From assembly GCA_902789925.1 (NCBI GenBank), contig CADAPX010000001.1, positions 1-60,507 on the forward strand: a DNA stretch of 60,507 nt, given 5' to 3'. Made by a program: the position numbers and the translations under genes. Below the pieces are notes generated by a model, which saw only the letters and a program-made list of their open reading frames with translations, had not been told where the DNA came from and ran no database searches. The stretch comes from Oscillospiraceae bacterium. Its GTDB lineage: Bacteria; Bacillota; Clostridia; Oscillospirales; Ruminococcaceae. Positions 6,291 to 60,507 of this stretch are shown piece after piece (within the stretch, counting starts at the first letter, position 1; each line of letters opens with the position of its first letter).

Positions 6291-6689
6291 CCAATATTTT
6301 TCACGTTTGGTTTAATTTTTTGATGCAAATCAAGTGATACTAGGTGTATGATCGGTTTTTCGAAAATATGCGAATCTTTCGATTAATTTCTTGCAAATTA
6401 GTCAAGTTTGTATCCTTTAGATAAAAAAACACATTCGTATTTGGCATTATTTTTAAAGTTTGAATTTAAGCTTGAAGTTGCTTAGTGAAACTGGGTTTTA
6501 AAAATAAAAATAAAATATTTTTTTTGAAAAATAATTTTTAATTTATCTTTCAAGCCAAGCTCAAAAAAACCGATGAAACAGGGGAATATTGCGAATTGGT
6601 ATGCCTTATTTTTTTGTTACATTTGGTATGCTAATCGTTTGATTATACATTTTGTTTTTTGAGTTTAAATTTTTCGAGCTTTTTTGCTA

Positions 6690-6751: not shown

Positions 6752-6797
6752 TTGGATTGATTCTCGCTCTTCTTGTTTTAAAAGGAGGTCTTTTGCG

Positions 6798-7217
6798 GTG
6801 TTGATTGGGGAACATAGTCATTTAATTGACGCCAAAGGACGACTTAACTTTCCGTCTAAAATGAGGGAAGTTTTTGGAGACCGGTTTATCGTCACTCGTG
6901 GATTTGATCGCTGTTTGAATGTATACTCGTTGCAAGAATGGTTTAGATTAGAAAATAGCATTAAAGACCTCCCTCGAAACAAAAGGCGCGATATTGAGCG
7001 GTTTTTCTTTTCTGGAGCGATTGAAGTTGTTCCAGATAAACAAGGAAGAATTGTCATATCCCCCACTTTGAGAGAGTATGCCCAGCTTGAAAGAAACATT
7101 GTTGTTGTTGGAGCTTCAGACCACGCTGAGATCTGGGATGAGGCGGCTTGGAAAAAGGAATTTGACAAGTTGTCTCCAGAATCTATAACGAAAATTATGG
7201 ACGATCTTGATTTTTAA
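6798..7217 (+). CDS. mraZ: transcriptional regulator MraZ
   Basis: GEHSHLIDAKGRLNFP and the second-half DKQGRIVISPTLREYA give the duplicated SpoVT/AbrB-like MraZ repeats. GTG start after aaaggagg; first gene of the dcw cluster. Confidence 0.9.
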   Translation: MLIGEHSHLIDAKGRLNFPSKMREVFGDRFIVTRGFDRCLNVYSLQEWFRLENSIKDLPRNKRRDIERFFFSGAIEVVPDKQGRIVISPTLREYAQLERNIVVVGASDHAEIWDEAAWKKEFDKLSPESITKIMDDLDF

Positions 7218-7244
7218 CCAACTTCTTCGTTTTTTTGAAAGGGG

Positions 7245-8177
7245 ATGAAAAAAATTGAGATTTTTTCTCACAATCCTGTTTTGCTAAAAGAGTGTGTTGA
7301 AGGCCTGGAAATCAAGCCTGAAGGGACATATGTTGACGCAACGGTTGGAGGAGCTGGCCATTCGATTGAGATCGCAAGAAAGCTCGAAAGCGGGAAATTG
7401 TTTGCGTTTGACAGGGATCCCGATGCTGTTTTGGTTTCAAAAAAAAGGCTCTCTTCATATCCGGCTTTTGTTATAAATTCGAATTTTTGCGAGATGAAAA
7501 AGCGCCTTGAATCCAGGGGAATTCGCGAGGTTGACGGAATTTTAATAGACTTGGGAGTTTCTTCATATCAGCTTGATAATCCAAAAAGAGGCTTTTCATA
7601 TAGACATGACGGCGCTTTAGACATGCGCATGAGCAAACAGGGGGTGACGGCAGCTGAAATTGTCAATAAATTTTCCGAAGAAGAATTAATTGAGATTTTG
7701 AAAAAATATGGCCAGGAGAGGTTTGCAAGGTCTATAGCTGCAAACATTGTTAAAAGAAGGTCTCAAAAATTAATCCAAACAACCCTGGATTTGGCAAACA
7801 TAATAAAATTTTCTATTCCTGCAAAATTTCGAAGAAACAAGAATCCGTGTAAAAAAAGTTTTCAAGCAATTCGAATAGCTGTTAATGGCGAGCTAGAAAG
7901 CCTGGAAATCGGGCTTGAGGCCTCGTTTGATCTGCTAAAAGCCGGAGGGAGGCTTCTGGTGATAACCTTTCATTCGCTTGAGGATCGGCTGGTTAAACAA
8001 AAATATAAAATTTGGAGCAGGGGGTGTGTGTGTCCTCCGAAATCCCCGATATGTGTGTGTGGGAATGTTCCTTTGGCAAAACTAGTAAATAAAAAAGCAA
8101 TCAGGCCCAGCGACTTGGAAATTGCAACTAATCCAAGAAGCAAGAGCGCGAAATTGAGAATTTTAGAAAAGCTTTAA
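7245..8177 (+). CDS. rsmH: 16S rRNA (cytosine1402-N4)-methyltransferase
   Basis: HNPVLLKE, DATVGGAGHS, DLGVSSYQLD and ITFHSLEDR motifs, in the position after mraZ. Confidence 0.95.
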   Translation: MKKIEIFSHNPVLLKECVEGLEIKPEGTYVDATVGGAGHSIEIARKLESGKLFAFDRDPDAVLVSKKRLSSYPAFVINSNFCEMKKRLESRGIREVDGILIDLGVSSYQLDNPKRGFSYRHDGALDMRMSKQGVTAAEIVNKFSEEELIEILKKYGQERFARSIAANIVKRRSQKLIQTTLDLANIIKFSIPAKFRRNKNPCKKSFQAIRIAVNGELESLEIGLEASFDLLKAGGRLLVITFHSLEDRLVKQKYKIWSRGCVCPPKSPICVCGNVPLAKLVNKKAIRPSDLEIATNPRSKSAKLRILEKL

Positions 8178-52038: not shown

Positions 52039-52123
52039 ATAAATGATGATACTTTTAAATAGTATTATCTAAGCGAAATTTTATATTGTTCATCAAATAT
52101 TAACTGCAAAGGATGTGATTATC

Positions 52124-54550
52124 ATGAGTAATTCGATGACAAAATTAAAAAAAGGCGTTTTAAAAAAATCTCTAGCCTTATTTTTGGCGGTTTTAATGTG
52201 CATAACTTGCTTAACCGTTTCGGTTTTTGCCGGTGCGGAGGGGGAAGAAATGTTTTGCAATGACAAAATGAACAGTTTGCCAACTAGAAGCAGAGCGTTT
52301 TTTTCAGAAACCACCAAATTGCCCGACGTGAATCGGCTGAATCCAACGCGCCTTGAAACTGTTGTCCACTCTAACGGTTCAAGAGAATATATTTTCGTGG
52401 ATGAGCAGGCTTGCTACAAAAAAATGGTTGAAGTTGTCAAAAATCTGCAACAAAGCGTTAGAAACGGCAATGATTTAAAAGCTTGGGGGGAGGATTATTA
52501 TAAATATGTTGGTTTACCGGAAAAAATGCGTTTGGCAGATGCTATTTACCGATGGGTTGCCGAAAATATACTTTATGACTTTGAAACATATGATATTGTC
52601 GACAAAGACGCAAACGGCAGCCAGGCAACATGGAAACCACAAGATGCATATTTTGTTTTTAAAACGAAAAAAGGCGTTTGTGAGGGATACGCAAGGCTTG
52701 CAAATTTAATGATGCGTATCGCCGGCATACCGTGTATGTATGTTTCCAGTATTTGTGGAAAAGATGATTACTGCGCCCACGCATTTAATGCTGTTTATAT
52801 TAAGGATGATGTGAATGGAAGGCAAGGCTGGACGCTTGTTGACCCAACATGGGCTTCTCCAAACGGATCAGATGGAAACAATCCAAACGCCAGGAAAACC
52901 ATTTCTGGAGTGACAAAATTTGCAAAAGGTTGCTTTAATGTTTTTAAAAGAAATGATAATTATTTAAAAGAACTTTATAATAATTTCGCAATTTATGCTA
53001 ATCAAATGGCGGATATGGGCTGTGATAGAATGGCTGTTCAACTAAACAGAGTTTCGTCAACAATTTTGAATAATTTAAATCAACAATACCCAGACGGTTC
53101 ACACTTTCAAAAAATCCAGTTCTATAACGCAAATGGATCTTTACGCGTTCAATATCAAGCGAATATAAAAGCTCAGGATATGAAAAAATATGACGCTAAT
53201 ATGTTAAAATCTTGCGCGGATGAATTGATGGGAAAATCCGAAAAGAGTTTTTGTGTGTGGCCAACAGGACAAGCAAATTTAGTTTTAAGGGACGTAAATT
53301 TTCATGGACTCTGGTTCACAAATTCTTGTTTTGAAAGAATAAACAACCCTGACCCTTTTCAAAAAGATAAAGCTAAACAGTATCTGGCAACGCTTAAAAT
53401 TATATGTCATAATATTGTTCAGAAACATTTAAAAAATATTGCAAATGCTTGGACACCTCAAAATGCTTTAAAACAATTGAATGATGAAATAAATTCAAGA
53501 CTAAATGCTTTAAACAATGCGTATGGTGACATCACCGGATTTAAACATTTAACCTTCAATTTAAAACGTGAAACAAACCCGGTTTATGGGCAAAACAGGC
53601 GTTATAATGTTTTAACGTTAAAATGTGAAACTGCGTTAGATGAAAGCGAAATCAGGAATCGATTGGATGAAAGTTTTTCAAATGATACTGAGTTTTTGAA
53701 AGAGCAAAAAGCAAAGGAAGATCAAAAGTTCTATAAAGAATTTTTCCCAGCATTCTATCAACCAGATAAATCAATTGAGCATGCTAATAAAAAGGTTATT
53801 AAACATCTATATCACAAACTGTTTGCATTTGAATTTTCACACGAATTTTGGGATCAAAAAATAAACTTTCCGCGCCTTAAAGAAACTTCTCATGAAGGAA
53901 ATGCTCAAATAGAGCCCGCTGCTCCTAAAGATGAGAATAAACCATATTATGTTCCGCAAGAACTTAAAAAATATGGTTTGGAAGTTGTCATTCCGTGTAA
54001 TGTTAAAATTCTGATCCTCACGGGAGATGAGCGTGTGAATTTTGATGATGCGTTGGGCTTGCAGGAAGTTGGCGGAGTATCCACATACTATATTTTAAAG
54101 GATGGCAATGTGTATGACCAAAACGGAACGCTGATTTTTGGAAGAGTCAAAGATGATAATTATGGAGGTTACTATAACTATAATAATTATACATATGACA
54201 ATAATACTTACAATTATACATATGATAATAATACTTACAATTATACAAATGACAATAACAACAACAATTATACATATGATAATAACACCTATAATAATTA
54301 TAATACATATGACAGCAATACATATAGCTGTGGCATTAAAGCCAAAAAGAAAAAACAACAAAAGCGCTATATTTGCGCTAAAAGCAAAAATTCACAAAAA
54401 CAAAGTGTTTGCGCTAAAAGCAAAAATTCACAAAAACAAAGTGTCTGCGCTAAAAGCAAAAATTTACAAAAACAAAGTGTCTGCGCTAAAAGCAAAAATT
54501 CACAAAAAGCTAAAAGTAAAAATTCACAAAAACAAAGTGTTTGCAGATAA
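52124..54550 (+). CDS. secreted transglutaminase-like cysteine protease-fold protein, paralog 3, with Asn/Tyr-rich and Cys/Lys-rich C-terminal repeats
   Basis: Signal peptide ending SVFA. The triad is in KGVCEGYARL, CAHAFNAVYI and TLVDPTWAS. The C-terminus is YNYNNYTYDNNTYNYTYDNNTYNY... followed by (CAKSKNSQKQSV)n. Confidence 0.8.
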   Translation: MSNSMTKLKKGVLKKSLALFLAVLMCITCLTVSVFAGAEGEEMFCNDKMNSLPTRSRAFFSETTKLPDVNRLNPTRLETVVHSNGSREYIFVDEQACYKKMVEVVKNLQQSVRNGNDLKAWGEDYYKYVGLPEKMRLADAIYRWVAENILYDFETYDIVDKDANGSQATWKPQDAYFVFKTKKGVCEGYARLANLMMRIAGIPCMYVSSICGKDDYCAHAFNAVYIKDDVNGRQGWTLVDPTWASPNGSDGNNPNARKTISGVTKFAKGCFNVFKRNDNYLKELYNNFAIYANQMADMGCDRMAVQLNRVSSTILNNLNQQYPDGSHFQKIQFYNANGSLRVQYQANIKAQDMKKYDANMLKSCADELMGKSEKSFCVWPTGQANLVLRDVNFHGLWFTNSCFERINNPDPFQKDKAKQYLATLKIICHNIVQKHLKNIANAWTPQNALKQLNDEINSRLNALNNAYGDITGFKHLTFNLKRETNPVYGQNRRYNVLTLKCETALDESEIRNRLDESFSNDTEFLKEQKAKEDQKFYKEFFPAFYQPDKSIEHANKKVIKHLYHKLFAFEFSHEFWDQKINFPRLKETSHEGNAQIEPAAPKDENKPYYVPQELKKYGLEVVIPCNVKILILTGDERVNFDDALGLQEVGGVSTYYILKDGNVYDQNGTLIFGRVKDDNYGGYYNYNNYTYDNNTYNYTYDNNTYNYTNDNNNNNYTYDNNTYNNYNTYDSNTYSCGIKAKKKKQQKRYICAKSKNSQKQSVCAKSKNSQKQSVCAKSKNLQKQSVCAKSKNSQKAKSKNSQKQSVCR
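54169..54326 (+). repeat. imperfect 27-nt coding repeats (YNYTYDNNT units)
   Basis: The acaattatacatatgataataatactt unit is reiterated with variation. All other frames are open because of the low complexity. Confidence 0.8.
54374..54547 (+). repeat. 36-nt coding tandem repeat, about 4.8 copies (CAKSKNSQKQSV)
   Basis: tgcgctaaaagcaaaaattcacaaaaacaaagtgt(t/c) starts at 54374, 54410, 54446 and 54482. The last unit is rearranged. Confidence 0.9.
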
Positions 54551-55510: not shown

Positions 55511-56593
55511 ATGATTGGCAAAAAAGCTATTGTTGCAATGAGCGGCGGGGTTGATTCGAGCGTTGCGGCTTTGATTCTAAAACAACAAGGTTTTGACCTA
55601 ATTGGAGCAACAATGAAGCTGTTTGATAATGAAGACGTCGGCGTTTGCGAAAAAAACACATGCTGTTCTCTCAAAGACATTGATGACGCAAGAAATATTG
55701 CATATGAGCTGAATATTCCATACTATGTCTTTAATTTTTCACACAAATTTAAATCGGCTGTTATCGACAAATTCATACATGCATATGAAAACGGCCTAAC
55801 TCCAAACCCGTGCATTGACTGCAACCGGTATTTAAAATTTGACAAACTGCTTCAACGAGCCAAGGAGCTCAACTTTGACTTTATCGCAACAGGCCACTAT
55901 GCACAAGTTGAATATAATCAAAAAAGTGGGCGTTGGATTTTGAAAAAAGCGACTGATCCACATAAAGATCAAAGCTATGTTTTATATTCGCTGACTCAAG
56001 AGCAACTGTCGCGCACTTTGTTTCCACTCGGCAAAATGAACAAAAACGAGGTTCGAGAAATCGCAAAAAGCAACAATTTCAACAATGCAAAAAAACACGA
56101 CAGTCAGGACATTTGTTTTATTAAAAACGGCAAATATTCGGATTTCATCAAATCACACACAAATAAAAACTATCCGCCTGGGAATTTTGTTGATATTGAC
56201 GGCAAATTCCTTGGGCCCCACAAAGGCATTATACACTATACAATTGGCCAGAGGAAGGGGCTTGGCTTGTCTTTTTCTGAGCCGATGTATGTTTTAAAAA
56301 TCGATCCTCAAAGCAATCAAATAACCCTTGCGCCAAACGAAAAAACATACACAAAAACGCTGGTTGCCAAAGATATAAACTTGATTTCAAAAGAAAATTT
56401 ATATGTAAAAACAAAAATTAAGGCTAAAGTCAGATATAACCAACAAGAGCAATGGGCAGTTGCTGTTCAGCTCAACTCAAACCAAATCAAGGTTGAATTT
56501 GAAAAGCCCCAACGCGCGATAACCAAAGGGCAGGCGGTTGTTTTATATGACGAAGATGTTGTTGTTGGCGGGGGGACAATTTGCCAGACGTGA
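55511..56593 (+). CDS. mnmA: tRNA 2-thiouridine(34) synthase
   Basis: PP-loop AMSGGVDSSVAA, CNRYLKF, and DQSYVL. Confidence 0.95.
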   Translation: MIGKKAIVAMSGGVDSSVAALILKQQGFDLIGATMKLFDNEDVGVCEKNTCCSLKDIDDARNIAYELNIPYYVFNFSHKFKSAVIDKFIHAYENGLTPNPCIDCNRYLKFDKLLQRAKELNFDFIATGHYAQVEYNQKSGRWILKKATDPHKDQSYVLYSLTQEQLSRTLFPLGKMNKNEVREIAKSNNFNNAKKHDSQDICFIKNGKYSDFIKSHTNKNYPPGNFVDIDGKFLGPHKGIIHYTIGQRKGLGLSFSEPMYVLKIDPQSNQITLAPNEKTYTKTLVAKDINLISKENLYVKTKIKAKVRYNQQEQWAVAVQLNSNQIKVEFEKPQRAITKGQAVVLYDEDVVVGGGTICQT

Positions 56594-56675
56594 TTAAATA
56601 TAACCCCAATTTAAAAATACTATTTTTTTACCTTTAATACTTTTAGTGTTAATTAAAACTTTTTTTAAAAATCGC

Positions 56676-56704
56676 TTGACAATATTTAAATAATGTGATA
56701 TAAT
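56676..56704 (+). promoter_or_regulatory. perfect consensus promoter of the trp leader
   Basis: ttgaca (56676-56681), 17-nt spacer, tataat (56699-56704). Confidence 0.75.
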
Positions 56705-56736
56705 GAAAGAGATATAGTTGAAAGGAGCGAAGAGCA

Positions 56737-56829
56737 ATGAGTGCTGCATTTTGTTTTGAAGTTAACAATTTGTGGCGAGTATGGGAAGATGTTTTTGCCC
56801 ATACAGGTTTTGCGCGCTTTAAACTATAG
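56737..56829 (+). CDS. candidate trp leader peptide (30 aa, two Trp codons)
   Basis: aaggag SD, 8 nt, then ATG. It encodes MSAAFCFEVNNLWRVWEDVFAHTGFARFKL with TGG at 56773 and 56782. The second Trp codon lies inside segment 1 of an alternative-hairpin attenuator. Confidence 0.6.
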   Translation: MSAAFCFEVNNLWRVWEDVFAHTGFARFKL

Positions 56830-56853
56830 TTGAAACTGTGTTTTTAGATTATG

Positions 56854-56909
56854 ATCGCGTGTGTGTGGAGCAAAGTTTTTAGAGCTTCCATACGCGCGAT
56901 TTTTTCTTT
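56854..56909 (+). terminator. attenuator terminator (segments 3:4) upstream of trpB
   Basis: atcgcgtgtgtgtggagc (56854-56871) pairs with gcttccatacgcgcgat (56884-56900): about 17 bp with 3 G-U pairs and 1 bulge. It is followed by TTTTTCTTT. Confidence 0.7.
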
Positions 56910-56991
56910 GAGAAAGGAGTTGATTTTGCTGTGGAAACAGATTGGGACTGGAAAAGAAACAAACATATATTTATGAAAGAGAGAGATTTTT

Positions 56992-58206
56992 ATGAATTAT
57001 TTAGAATTTGGTGGACAATATGTTCCACAACAACTCAAAATAAAGCTTAATAAATTAAAAGAAGAATTTGACCGATTGGTTGGAAGCGAAGAATTTTCCG
57101 GAGAATATAGACGCTGTTTGAAACAATTTGTTGGCAGGCCATCGCCGCTGTTTTTTGCGAGCAATTTAACCAAATATGCGGGTGGGGCCAAAATATATTT
57201 GAAGAGGGAGGATCTGAACCACACCGGCGCGCATAAGATAAATAACGCAATCGGCCAAGCTTTGCTCGCGAGAAAAATGAACAAAACGCACATTATTGCT
57301 GAAACAGGGGCGGGACAGCATGGAGTCGCAACAGCAACCGCAGCAGCGCTTTTTGGCCTAAAATGCAAGATATTTATGGGCAAAGAGGACGTCAAAAGGC
57401 AAAAAATCAATGTTAATAAAATGAAACTTTTGGGAGCTGATGTTTTCGAAGTCACAACTGGCAATCAAACTTTGAAGGAAGCTGTTGATGTTGCGTTTGA
57501 TTATTTTCTTAATCATCAAGATGTTTTTTATTTAATTGGCTCTGCGGTTGGCCCGAGTCCATATCCCGAGATGGTTAAATATTTTCAAAAAGTTATCGGC
57601 GAGGAAGCAAAGCGACAGATAGTTGAGCAGGAAGGAAAGTTGCCAAAAGCGATTGTCGCGTGCGTTGGGGGCGGAAGCAACAGCATAGGGCTGTTTGCAG
57701 ATTTTATCGATGAAAAGCAAGTTGATATATATGGGGTTGAGGGCGCAGGCAAGGGCTTGGAGTCTGGAAAGCATGCGTGCGCAATATATCAAAACAAAAT
57801 AGGCGTTATACACGGAATGAAGACATATGTTATGCAGGATGAAAATGGGAAAATCAAAGACGCATATTCCATTTCAGCCGGGCTAGACTATCCCGGAATC
57901 GGCCCAGAACACGCATATCTATATAAAACAGGCAGGGTTAAATATGACAGTATCACGGATAGCGAAGCCACTGGTGCATTCACCTTGCTTTGCCGTTTGG
58001 AGGGGATTGTTCCTGCGCTGGAGAGCAGTCACGCAGTGGCATATGCGCTAAAAATTGCTAAGCAGTATGATAAAAATGACGCTATAGTTGTTAATTTGTC
58101 GGGCAGGGGAGATAAAGATTTAAACACGATGATTAAAATAATGGAGCAAAAAAGGGAGAAAAATTTAGTTAAAACTGACAAAAACACGGACATTAGATCA
58201 ATGTGA
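56992..58206 (+). CDS. trpB: tryptophan synthase beta chain (stand-alone)
   Basis: FGGQYVPQ, the PLP-lysine motif [19 protein letters not shown], and GGGSNSIG. No trpA or other trp genes in the window. Confidence 0.95.
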
Positions 58207-58325: not shown

Positions 58326-58646
58326 ATGAATAAAGTAACAGATGCTGAGTATGAGGTTATGAAAGCGGTTTGAAAAAAGCCGTGGAGCAAAACGACCGTT
58401 AAAACTTTGATTTCGCGGCTTGCTTCCAAAGGGGCCTTAAAGATCGATAAAGCCGCGAGCAGTGTATATAAATATAAAGCCAACATTTCAGAGGACGAAT
58501 ATAAAAATCAAGAGAGCGAAAATTTAATTGGAAAATTGTTTAACGGCTCAATAAATGAAATGCTGTTAAATTTCACAAAATCCAAGAAACTTTCAAAGCA
58601 AGAATTGGAAGAATTGATAAAATTAGTGGGTGAAGAGGAAAAATGA
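58326..58646 (+). pseudogene. blaI: BlaI/MecI/CopY-family repressor, disrupted (in-frame TGA plus wHTH deletion)
   Basis: It reads MNKVTDAEYEVMKAV-TGA-KKPWSKTTVKTLISRLASKGALK...LLNFTKSKKLSKQELEELIKL. The TGA at 58371-58373 sits where the family has its conserved Trp (EVMxxxW). About 17 residues between that Trp and the W-S-x-K-T-V-K-T-L helix are missing. Confidence 0.65.
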
Positions 58647-59767
58647 TGGGGTGTTTTGTTGTAAAAATTGCTTGGATGTCCTTGGTTTCGTCCATGTTGG
58701 GCTTGATGATTTTGGGGATAAGAAAGATTAATAAAAAAATGCCTATACAATTAATTTCAATGTTTTGGCTAATATTTTTAGCATTTTTGATAATACCGTT
58801 TCAATTTGAAAATATTCATAATAATCTGAAAATAACTCAACCAATTGGCAAAATCAGAGAAAACGTTTTGACAAGAATTGAGATTCAAAGCCAAAGCCCG
58901 GAGTCAATAAACCTTTGGAATATAGCGTTTTTTGCTCATTTGATTGTTTTTTCAATCCTGTGTTTAAAAGATAGCTGCGCCTATATCATTCTAAAATATA
59001 AGATTAAAAATAAAAAAATTGAGCTGGGCCCAGAAAATTTGAAATTATTCGACATAGCAAAAGAAAAATTAAATTTTAAAAGAAAAGTCGACCTAATATG
59101 TCAAGACAGCATTCTAACGCCGTCAACTGTTGGGATATTCAGGCCCAAGATTTTGATTTCTAAAAAATTTTTGGCCCTGTCTGAAAAAGAGCAGGAATTC
59201 ATCTTCCTCCACGAGCTCATGCATATAAAAAAATCTGACAATATTAAATATTTTTTGATAAATATACTAAAAAATTTTTACTGGTTTAACCCGATGATAA
59301 ATTTTTTGACAAGGAGGCTTAAAGAAGACATTGAAATATTAACGGATAAATTGGTAATAAAATATGTTGAAATTAAAAAATATTTGATATTAATATTAAA
59401 AATTTCACAGTTCGAAGCGTCAAATGGCGGGGCATTTCCATCGTTTGCCGCTGACAAAAAAATTTTAGAAAGAAGGATTAAAATCGTGAAAAAAGAAAGA
59501 AAATTAAGCCTAAAAGTTATATCTTTATTTGCAGCATCTATATGTACAACTTTATTAAGTGTTAAATTAAAAGGTAAATCTTTCGATTCCAATAATTTTT
59601 TTGTTTCTTCAGAAATATTAATTCTTCCTGGACTTCCAGAACTTTCCATTTTATTAGCAATTAGAACGTCACTCCCAAAAATATCATATCTAACAACAGA
59701 ACTTCCGATAATTCCCGCAATAACAGTACCTGTATGGATTCCAATTCTCATATCTAATAATTCATAA
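58643..59767 (+). pseudogene. blaR1: BlaR1/MecR1-like M56 peptidase-domain membrane protein, probably truncated near 59.5 kb
   Basis: TM segments, then the HExxH motif in FIFLHELMHIKKSDN. ATGA overlap with blaI. Recognisable family sequence ends about ...ILERRIKIVKKE. The remaining open frame is antisense to the cyclase gene. Confidence 0.6.
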
Positions 59768-60507
59768 TTAACTCTTTTTCTTACATCTCTAATTATATTT
59801 ATCATTTCTTCTCCCATTTTACATACATTTTTAGCTTCTTCATAATAATTTCTTTCATTCATTGAAACTTTTCCATTAAATCCCATAACAACATAACAAT
59901 CTCCTATAGTATGAACTTTATAAACATGACATGCCTTTGTTGCATGATCAAAATTTTTAAATAGTTCCATAAGCATTTTTACGACTTCTACTGGTTCATG
60001 ACAATTACCAAAATCGGTATATCTAACTATATCTGCGAATAACATTGTAACACTTTCTAGAACATCTGCAACTGGGATATCATCTTTCATATTTTGTACG
60101 ACATGTAATGGCATTAAATTAAATAGCATTTTTTCTGTGTCAACTAATGTTTTACTCTCTTTTTGATTTGCCAGAAAAATTGTTGTCATATCAAAATATA
60201 GTATTAAAATATATATTAGTTTAATGACTGATATTGTTATTAAAAATATATTATATTTTTTAATCAACCATTCATCCCTGTTTGTAACTATATCAACTAT
60301 ATATACAACAATATGTAAAGCAATATTTATTGTGATTTGAAGATAATTTAATATACCACAGGCTTCAATTCCTGTCAAAATAACTATTTCTTCCACTGCC
60401 ATATTTAATAAATTATATTCATCTATATGACTATTAAAAATAACATTATTTATTGTTATACCTAAATATAAAATTGTAAAATAAATAAACATAAATAATG
60501 GATAATA
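59278..60507 (-). CDS. membrane-anchored class III adenylate/guanylate cyclase, 5' partial (open to the window edge); true 3' end uncertain (about 59.5-59.6 kb)
   Basis: Catalytic-core motifs VTMLFADIVRYTDF, VHTIGDCYVVMG, MRIGIHTGTVIAGIIG and YDIFGSDVLIANKMESSG are preceded by hydrophobic segments. The last about 77 codons of the ORF (59278-59511) are antisense to blaR1 and probably not genuine. Confidence 0.7.
   Translation of the reverse strand, partial: YYPLFMFIYFTILYLGITINNVIFNSHIDEYNLLNMAVEEIVILTGIEACGILNYLQITINIALHIVVYIVDIVTNRDEWLIKKYNIFLITISVIKLIYILILYFDMTTIFLANQKESKTLVDTEKMLFNLMPLHVVQNMKDDIPVADVLESVTMLFADIVRYTDFGNCHEPVEVVKMLMELFKNFDHATKACHVYKVHTIGDCYVVMGFNGKVSMNERNYYEEAKNVCKMGEEMINIIRDVRKRVNYELLDMRIGIHTGTVIAGIIGSSVVRYDIFGSDVLIANKMESSGSPGRINISEETKKLLESKDLPFNLTLNKVVHIDAANKDITFRLNFLSFFTILILLSKIFLSAANDGNAPPFDASNCEIFNINIKYFLISTYFITNLSVNISMSSLSLLVKKFIIGLNQ

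Follow-up and report, generated by a model that had tools for sequence, protein, structure and literature searches.

Positions 56676-56991 of a 60,507-nucleotide (nt) stretch of DNA from an Oscillospiraceae bacterium (contig CADAPX010000001.1; the full stretch is called the window below) lie directly upstream of trpB, the gene for the tryptophan synthase beta subunit. Very probably the region acts as a leader-peptide attenuator, in which a translating ribosome senses charged tRNA-Trp and thereby sets the transcription of trpB, a monocistronic gene. In textbook accounts, Firmicutes control their trp genes by T-box leaders or by TRAP. A sequence-only reading of the window had proposed the classical logic of the E. 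coli trpL leader instead, with four RNA segments and with ribosome stalling at Trp codons freeing segment 2. The anatomy of the region, its conservation, the covariation of its helices and ribosome-constrained folding all support that proposal, and each of the computational checks that could have refuted it spoke for it.

All elements lie on the forward strand unless stated otherwise, and positions are those of the window. A SigA/sigma-70-type promoter occupies 56676-56704 and consists of TTGACA (56676-56681), a 17-nt spacer with a TG at 56696-56697 (extended -10) and TATAAT (56699-56704). Both hexamers are perfect, as the earlier reading had it; with the TG the promoter scores 12/12 and is the sole perfect match within the 3.3 kb scanned. 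Most orthologous loci also show TTGACA and TATAAT. Transcription would start near 56711. Downstream lies a leader open reading frame (ORF1; 56737-56829) of 30 codons, MSAAFCFEVNNLWRVWEDVFAHTGFARFKL, which begins with an ATG at 56737, ends with a stop codon at 56827 and is preceded by the Shine-Dalgarno (SD) sequence AAAGGAG at 56721-56727, 9 nt 5′ of the ATG. Codons 13 (56773-56775) and 16 (56782-56784) are TGG. The ORF, its good SD and the two Trp codons had all been described before, and all are present. Trp makes up 0.54% of the residues in the long ORFs of the window, so the probability of at least two Trp in 30 codons is about 0.011.

The leader RNA contains four segments whose pairings exclude one another, and the 1:2, 2:3 and 3:4 pairings and the U-run were found just as proposed. 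Segment 1 (GUAUGGG, 56779-56785) includes Trp codon 16 and pairs with segment 2 to form an anti-antiterminator, in which 56779-56785 (gtatggg) are matched with 56798-56804 (cccatac) at a ΔG of -9.6 kcal/mol. Segment 2 spans 56795-56817. Its first part, UUGCCCAUACA (56795-56805), can pair with segment 1 or with segment 3, and its last part, GCGCGC (56812-56817), belongs to an inner antiterminator helix. Segment 3 (56853-56871) is the 5′ arm of the terminator and is common to antiterminator and terminator. Segment 4 (56884-56909) comprises the 3′ arm of the terminator (56884-56901) and the U-run UUUUUUCUUU (56900-56909). The 2:3 pairing joins 56795-56805 with 56862-56873 in 11 base pairs (bp), with one G-U pair and one bulged A. 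The sequence-only reading had placed this helix correctly but had not listed the inner helix, in which GCGCGC pairs with the base of the terminator 5′ arm and with which the antiterminator totals -23.6 kcal/mol. The 3:4 terminator (56853-56901) has 18 bp and a ΔG of about -26 kcal/mol (-25.7), and the U-run follows it. The leader as a whole folds at -66 kcal/mol (z = -4.75), and none of 200 shuffled sequences was as stable.

A collection of 185,579 species genomes was searched for relatives of TrpB. The closest 35, at 69-95% identity, come from uncultured low-GC "Clostridia/Bacilli/Ruminococcaceae" metagenome-assembled genomes (MAGs) of rumen and gut and from Clostridium sp. CAG:452 and Candidatus Scatovivens. 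Thirty of these loci had enough upstream sequence to be used, and all 30 carry a homologous leader with promoter, SD, ORF, 1:2 hairpin, terminator and U tail. The ORF1 leader is located about 230 nt upstream of trpB in every one of them, the ΔG of the terminator ranges from -17.6 to -27.3 kcal/mol, and an AGGAG-type SD is found at the same distance from the ORF1 start in the orthologues. The leader was absent from more distant Lachnospiraceae trpB loci. Two DNA-pattern scans with the conserved leader core added about 15 genomic and 74 metagenomic leaders having both ORF and terminator, which gave about 100 distinct leaders overall. Roughly one quarter of the pattern matches were discarded as chance matches in unrelated ORFs; among the rejected matches were some in the N-terminal part of a Pseudalkalibacillus membrane protein and a site just upstream of a P-type ATPase gene.

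The Trp codons of ORF1 are conserved. All 30 TrpB-anchored leaders keep the ORF with Trp at both codon 13 and codon 16, in agreement with the sequence-only reading, and codon 12 is also Trp in 18 of the 30. Because these leaders were picked by TrpB similarity alone, the Trp-codon result is unbiased. In the pattern-selected set, codon 12 is Trp in 75 of 87 leaders. We then considered 81 variants drawn from 100 distinct leader sequences. The ORF1 frame is open from the start codon to Trp13 in 81/81 of them, compared with 5/81 and 0/81 for the other frames. Codons 2-8 vary freely in sequence and never include a stop codon. That these codons vary while the frame stays open points to a constraint on coding but not on the amino acids, which fits a leader ORF that needs no more than to be translated. 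The peptide consensus in the 30 leaders is M..L.N.KLNNWWxVW.KNhpYkFVVL, and the length is 17-30 codons. Conservation across the roughly 100 homologous leaders is the decisive argument against chance.

A subfamily of leaders has an ORF1 of 18 codons (e.g. MNYLNNNNLNNWWNVWKS), with the stop two codons past Trp16. It includes metagenomic leaders L154, L161, L168, L204, L223 and others, as well as L010, L110 and L117. In layout these leaders resemble E. coli trpL more than those of 27-30 codons do.

Covariation was tested on an alignment of the 30 leaders (alignment A1). For the antiterminator, outer and inner helix together, 90.4% of cells are paired, compared with 20-53% when the partners are slid by 1-3 columns; eight pairs, with 34 cells, changed on both sides (for example, C-G to U-A at pair 85-174 and C-G/U-A/A-U at pair 83-176). 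The 1:2 hairpin and terminator together are 97.2% paired, with nine pairs changed on both sides. Within this total, the 1:2 hairpin alone is paired in 99.5% of cells and shows G-C to A-U covariation at pair 71-85, and the main terminator helix has both-side changes at 6 of 11 pairs. Compensatory changes are therefore present in the terminator, the antiterminator and the anti-antiterminator, as the alternative structures proposed earlier imply. The TTTG directly after segment 2 is nearly invariant.

We also folded the 30 leaders with a ribosome in place, using a footprint from -15 to +12 around the A site and a nascent transcript in which segment 4 does not yet exist. With the ribosome on W13, 10-19 nt (mostly 12-15) of the terminator 5′ arm are captured upstream in 29 of 30 leaders. 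With the ribosome on W16, upstream capture occurs in 24 of 30. When the ribosome is placed at the stop codon, the arm is mostly free (0-8 nt captured) in 25 of 30.

The proposed mechanism would run as follows. RNA polymerase would transcribe from the consensus promoter, beginning near 56711, and a ribosome would begin ORF1. If Trp-tRNA is scarce, the ribosome would stall when Trp codon 13 or 16 enters its A site, and would then cover segment 1. Segment 2 (56795-56817) could then pair with the emerging terminator 5′ arm, no terminator would form, and RNA polymerase would read into trpB. If Trp-tRNA is plentiful, the ribosome would reach the stop codon at 56827 and cover the inner antiterminator helix. 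Behind that ribosome segments 1 and 2 would pair, the 3:4 terminator would form, and transcription would end at the U-run near 56905.

The genes behind the leader fit this function. In the window, trpB occupies 56992-58206 (TIGR00263, 583 bits versus a cut-off of 392). It stands alone, with no adjoining trpA; mnmA lies upstream and genes for BlaI-like and BlaR1-like proteins lie downstream. No trpA partner was found downstream of trpB in the 10 loci checked, and the genes flanking trpB differ in each of these loci, so the leader travels with stand-alone trpB. Every identifiable gene downstream of a leader encodes TrpB (TIGR00263, about 85 loci) or the product of trpS, tryptophanyl-tRNA synthetase (TIGR00233; loci L120 and L225). 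In L120 the leader (6572-6655) sits directly before trpS (6774-7778; TIGR00233 332 bits versus a cut-off of 177), and L225 has a second trpS behind the same leader, with a protein 60% identical to that of L120; both lack the second upstream ORF (ORF2) described below. The window TrpB contains no Trp residue. The same holds for 34 of 34 clade orthologues (L001-L035), compared with 1-2 Trp residues in 45 of 45 outgroup proteins. The leader-controlled TrpS of L120 likewise has no Trp residue. A Trp-free TrpB without a nearby TrpA would presumably make tryptophan from scavenged indole and serine.

Other loci of the same gene carry a different device at the same position. A T-box with a UGG specifier (GAA-UGG-A) precedes orthologous trpB in L018, the cultured strain Breznakia sp. 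PF5-3 (L131) and Holdemania, and a T-box was also assigned to L032 and L034 by sequence similarity. Against a gathering score of 93 bits, the T-box of Holdemania (L140) reaches 110.7 bits, whereas that of L018, at 84 bits (E = 9e-19), falls just short. The T-boxes map to L018:2587-2806, L140:2772-3002 (reverse strand) and L131:~2340-2560, and ORF2 is kept behind each. Judged from these sequences, the leader-peptide attenuator and the T-box replace each other at orthologous trpB loci. Exchange with a T-box at one locus is strong indirect evidence that tRNA-Trp charging is the signal. L018, L032 and L034 also have a second partial antiterminator/terminator unit (AGGTGGCATAGCAAGA...GGATAxGAGT and a T-run) only about 45 nt after the first.

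The window itself has no such T-box. Against the 4227 families of Rfam, no match in the whole window reached the gathering score, and at E ≤ 10 the stretch 56550-57100 gave nothing relevant, neither T-box nor Trp_leader, which bears out the earlier remark that no T-box sequence is seen here. The T-boxes of L018 and L140 were picked up by this very search. A T-box leader (RF00230) was rejected for the window, which shows no covariance-model match, Stem I, specifier loop or T-box sequence. Membership in Rfam Trp_leader was rejected too. The window leader shares the logic of trpL but, without model-level similarity, falls outside that family. TRAP binding requires about 11 (G/U)AG repeats spaced by 2-3 nt (PMC4027176, PMC3064811), and the longest (G/U)AG chain in all 30 leaders is 1-2, so a TRAP-regulated leader was also rejected.

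Between the terminator and trpB lies ORF2, a conserved second upstream ORF (uORF) with Trp codons, which the sequence-only reading missed although its account of 56676-56991 as an attenuator is upheld. ORF2 (56931-57050; METDWDWKRNKHIF..., METDWDWK...) has a GTG start, Trp codons at 5 (56943-56945) and 7 (56949-56951), and the SD AAAGGAG at 56913-56919, where most orthologues have AAGGAGGUG, a near-perfect SD. It crosses the trpB SD and ATG out of frame and stops 59 nt inside trpB. In the orthologues ORF2 starts 21-43 nt 3′ of the terminator and follows the pattern M-E-x-D-W-x-W (e.g. L003:2937 onward); the TGG codons are fixed, and codons 3 and 6 are free to vary. In 25 of 33 loci it spans the SD and ATG of trpB out of frame, with its stop codon 53-80 nt into the gene. 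The SD duplex of ORF2 has a ΔG of -13 to -20 kcal/mol, versus -7 to -11 kcal/mol for trpB. A signature scan found the ORF2 module solely before trpB, behind either the ORF1 attenuator or a T-box. An alternative-frame ORF at 56851-56976 (including a TTG start at 56926) was rejected, as the frame conserved in orthologues is that of GTG 56931. Locus L104 (2967-3460) keeps an intact leader and ORF2 but only a C-terminal remnant of trpB, with a broken trpS-like gene behind it; this arrangement reflects either locus decay in that MAG or an assembly artefact.

The placement of ORF2 is of the rtpLP type: a short Trp-codon ORF directly upstream of a gene and behind a tRNA-Trp-responsive attenuator. As described in papers that cite the original work (Chen & Yanofsky 2003, 2004, cited in PMC10327191 and PMC4027176), the anti-TRAP (rtpA/yczA) operon of B. 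subtilis has a T-box and then translational control through tRNA-dependent stalling on a leader peptide. Because of this precedent, we give an even chance to a second layer of control in which, with ample Trp-tRNA, ORF2 ribosomes occlude the trpB ribosome-binding site (RBS), whereas ribosomes stalled at codons 5 and 7 leave it free. Read-through transcripts would carry ORF2, its ribosomes would cross the weaker trpB RBS, and stalling at the ORF2 Trp codons would clear that site, so that TrpB would be made only when Trp-tRNA is truly limiting. A structural switch of the erm or secM type, lying between ORF2 and the trpB RBS, was rejected. RNAalifold found 0 conserved pairs in the stretch from ORF2 to trpB, and the fold of the window sequence there is no more stable than shuffles (z = +0.94); this lack of conserved structure argues against an erm-type switch.

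To the extent that those citing papers describe it, the anti-TRAP operon is like the system proposed for the window locus in that tRNA-Trp charging is sensed twice, at transcription and at translation, and in having a Trp-codon uORF directly upstream of the regulated gene. Its order of T-box and then uORF is shared by L018, Breznakia and Holdemania, there before trpB. On the same accounts the window differs in that its first sensor would be a leader-peptide attenuator, so that both layers would be ribosome-based, with the role of ORF2 a putative one. It also differs in that ORF2 usually runs over the trpB start to a stop within the gene, not at the SD, and in that the regulated gene is trpB.

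Could the hairpin instead be a terminator that is constitutive or leaky, or a 5′ structure that stabilises the mRNA, with the ORF and its Trp codons incidental? One 30-codon ORF with two Trp arises by chance about 1% of the time and is possible in a single genome, and the terminator is thermodynamically dominant in every full-length fold. However, about 100 divergent leaders retain the ORF, SD and Trp codons, with the open-frame counts given above, the antiterminator covaries though a constitutive terminator would not need one, and the leader is linked solely to trpB and trpS. We regard this explanation as extremely improbable. A direct RNA sensor (a degenerate T-box, a tRNA-binding RNA, a small-molecule riboswitch or the target of a TRAP-like protein), in which translation of the ORF would be irrelevant, would be the usual mode of trp control in Firmicutes, and both the T-boxes in sister loci and the highly structured leader are in its favor. 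Set against this are the absence of any Rfam family at E ≤ 10, of a T-box sequence and of a specifier stem, a longest (G/U)AG chain of 2 where about 11 repeats are needed (PMC4027176), and codons 2-8, whose variation without stops is a coding constraint and is not aptamer-like. Such a sensor is very improbable.

A further explanation concerns the leader peptide itself. Asn10 is invariant in 87 of 87 leaders of the pattern-selected set, including synonymous AAT/AAC changes, Asn11 is conserved in 83 of 87 and Leu9 in 78 of 87 (56761-56769 in the window; columns 47-55 of alignment A1), and neither the pairings nor codon sensing explain this. The L-N-N-W-W-x-V-W sequence might cause or tune arrest in the exit tunnel, as TnaC does, or the released peptide or the terminated RNA of about 190 nt might act in trans, beside codon stalling or instead of it. 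Action in trans is documented for trpL products, namely the peptide peTrpL and the RNA rnTrpL of Sinorhizobium (PMC6614838, PMC7968998). The pattern that selected the 87 leaders includes both Asn codons and inflates their apparent invariance, though the trend recurs in the TrpB-anchored set. As the 18-codon subfamily and truncated variants show, the peptide can do without its C-terminal half, and TnaC-like sensing of free Trp would have the wrong regulatory sign for a Trp-producing enzyme. We consider an active leader peptide improbable, while a peptide-level or decoding-speed role for Leu9-Asn11 is possible.

Several observations weigh against attenuation by a ribosome translating ORF1, or against the second layer at ORF2. 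The conservation of Leu9, Asn10 and Asn11 is not accounted for by the pairing or codon-sensing model. Because Trp codon 16 lies within segment 1, RNA structure may also explain why it is conserved, and only codons 12 and 13 are free of this confounding. In full-length folds the terminator is always the equilibrium winner, which is also true of classical attenuators. Kinetics must therefore settle the decision, co-transcriptionally and with the ribosome keeping pace with RNA polymerase. Transcription and translation are reportedly only weakly coupled in B. subtilis. When the nascent transcript is folded without a stalled ribosome, at least 10 nt of the terminator 5′ arm are already engaged upstream in about 10 of 30 leaders. 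L010 and L020 have a shortened ORF1 and deviate from the ideal folding pattern. The ORF1 leader is carried solely by MAGs of uncultured organisms and by contigs from metagenomes. The window ORF2 has a GTG start with an 11-nt SD spacing. In five loci (L020, L021, L032, L034 and L135) ORF2 is in frame with trpB, where it would extend TrpB by 20 N-terminal residues holding both Trp; in L020 and L021 this results from a 1-nt difference before the trpB ATG. The ORF2 stop falls 35-45 nt short of the trpB start in L024, L029 and L030, and that of L018 is 20 nt 5′ of the trpB ATG. The in-frame and early-stop variants mean that simple occlusion is not universal.

The leader-peptide attenuator that we propose has counterparts in other phyla. 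E. coli and proteobacterial trpL and the attenuators predicted for the trp operons and trpS of Corynebacterium and Streptomyces (PMC1262725) share with it a promoter-proximal ORF with 2-3 Trp codons, the 1:2/2:3/3:4 logic and a terminator with a U-run. As with trpL, Trp biosynthesis is under control, and, as in Streptomyces, so is a trpS gene. Unlike trpL, the window family has no Rfam similarity at E ≤ 10 and is hosted by a low-GC Firmicute lineage. Its Trp codons, W(W)xxW, sit at fixed codons 12, 13 and 16 and are not strictly tandem, and an ORF1 of 27-30 codons has its stop codon 3′ of segment 2. It serves a stand-alone trpB instead of an operon, and it is followed by a second Trp-codon uORF. 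The UGG-specifier T-box (RF00230) found before Firmicute trp genes and trpS shares with the window leader its position, its gene and presumably its signal, tRNA-Trp charging, but binds uncharged tRNA directly and needs no translation.

Leader-peptide attenuators also have precedents in Firmicutes, at yfmH-yfmG (PMC7491331) and bmrB-bmrCD (PMC4191407) of B. subtilis and, as predicted His leaders, in the B. cereus group, Peptostreptococcaceae and Erysipelotrichales (PMC9413887). These resemble the window leader in their ribosome-dependent choice between antiterminator and terminator and in their phylum, and the His cases likewise come from comparative genomics; unlike the window leader, they sense other amino acids or antibiotics. 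In the literature covered, which is incomplete so that an earlier description is possible, we found for Firmicutes no Trp-specific leader-peptide attenuator, no tandem second uORF and no case in this lineage. The surprise that the sequence-only reading implied at an E. coli-style device in a Firmicute is thus only partly justified. The mechanism class is textbook; what is new is the leader family and the tandem two-uORF arrangement, not the principle.

A more far-reaching version of this reading would combine sensing of Trp by ribosomes only, in two steps (transcription at ORF1, then translation of the Trp-free TrpB at ORF2), with an L-N-N-W-W-x-V-W peptide that tunes stalling inside the ribosome. 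We hold this combination to be improbable. If it were true, two-step, ribosome-only sensing would demand tight transcription-translation coupling in a Firmicute lineage, and assistance by the nascent peptide would be a new ingredient in amino-acid attenuators.

Elsewhere in the window, some ORFs near trpB are irregular. A BlaR1-like ORF at 58643-59767 (374 aa, compared with 439 aa in L002) overlaps by about 490 nt an antisense ORF of 404 aa at 59278-60492 (reverse strand), which has a nucleotide-cyclase-like sequence (…FADIVRYTDF…GDCYVVMG…). The overlap points to a rearrangement, or to an ORF that is spuriously extended, at about 59.3-59.8 kb. The BlaI-like ORF (58407-58646) matches just the C-terminal two-thirds of BlaI. 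An ORF of 811 aa at 52115-54550 has a low-complexity repeat end (NNYTYDNNTY..., then KSKNSQKQSVCA repeated), and its repeats generate long ORFs on the opposite strand.

The roughly 100 leaders define a family in uncultured low-GC gut and rumen Firmicutes in which a ribosome-stalling attenuator would take the place of T-box or TRAP for trpB and trpS. The swap with T-boxes at orthologous loci is a natural experiment in regulatory replacement, and the family bears on the question of whether transcription-translation coupling in Firmicutes suffices for such devices. The tandem Trp-codon uORFs, one for transcription and one for translation, would be an all-ribosome counterpart of anti-TRAP control in B. 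subtilis. The leader is also a compact candidate for a Trp-responsive part, and it is missing from Rfam. For the organisms themselves, the arrangement would mark the stand-alone, Trp-free TrpB as starvation-induced, with a likely role in indole salvage in gut bacteria of reduced genome, and such a role would be relevant to the cross-feeding of indole and tryptophan.

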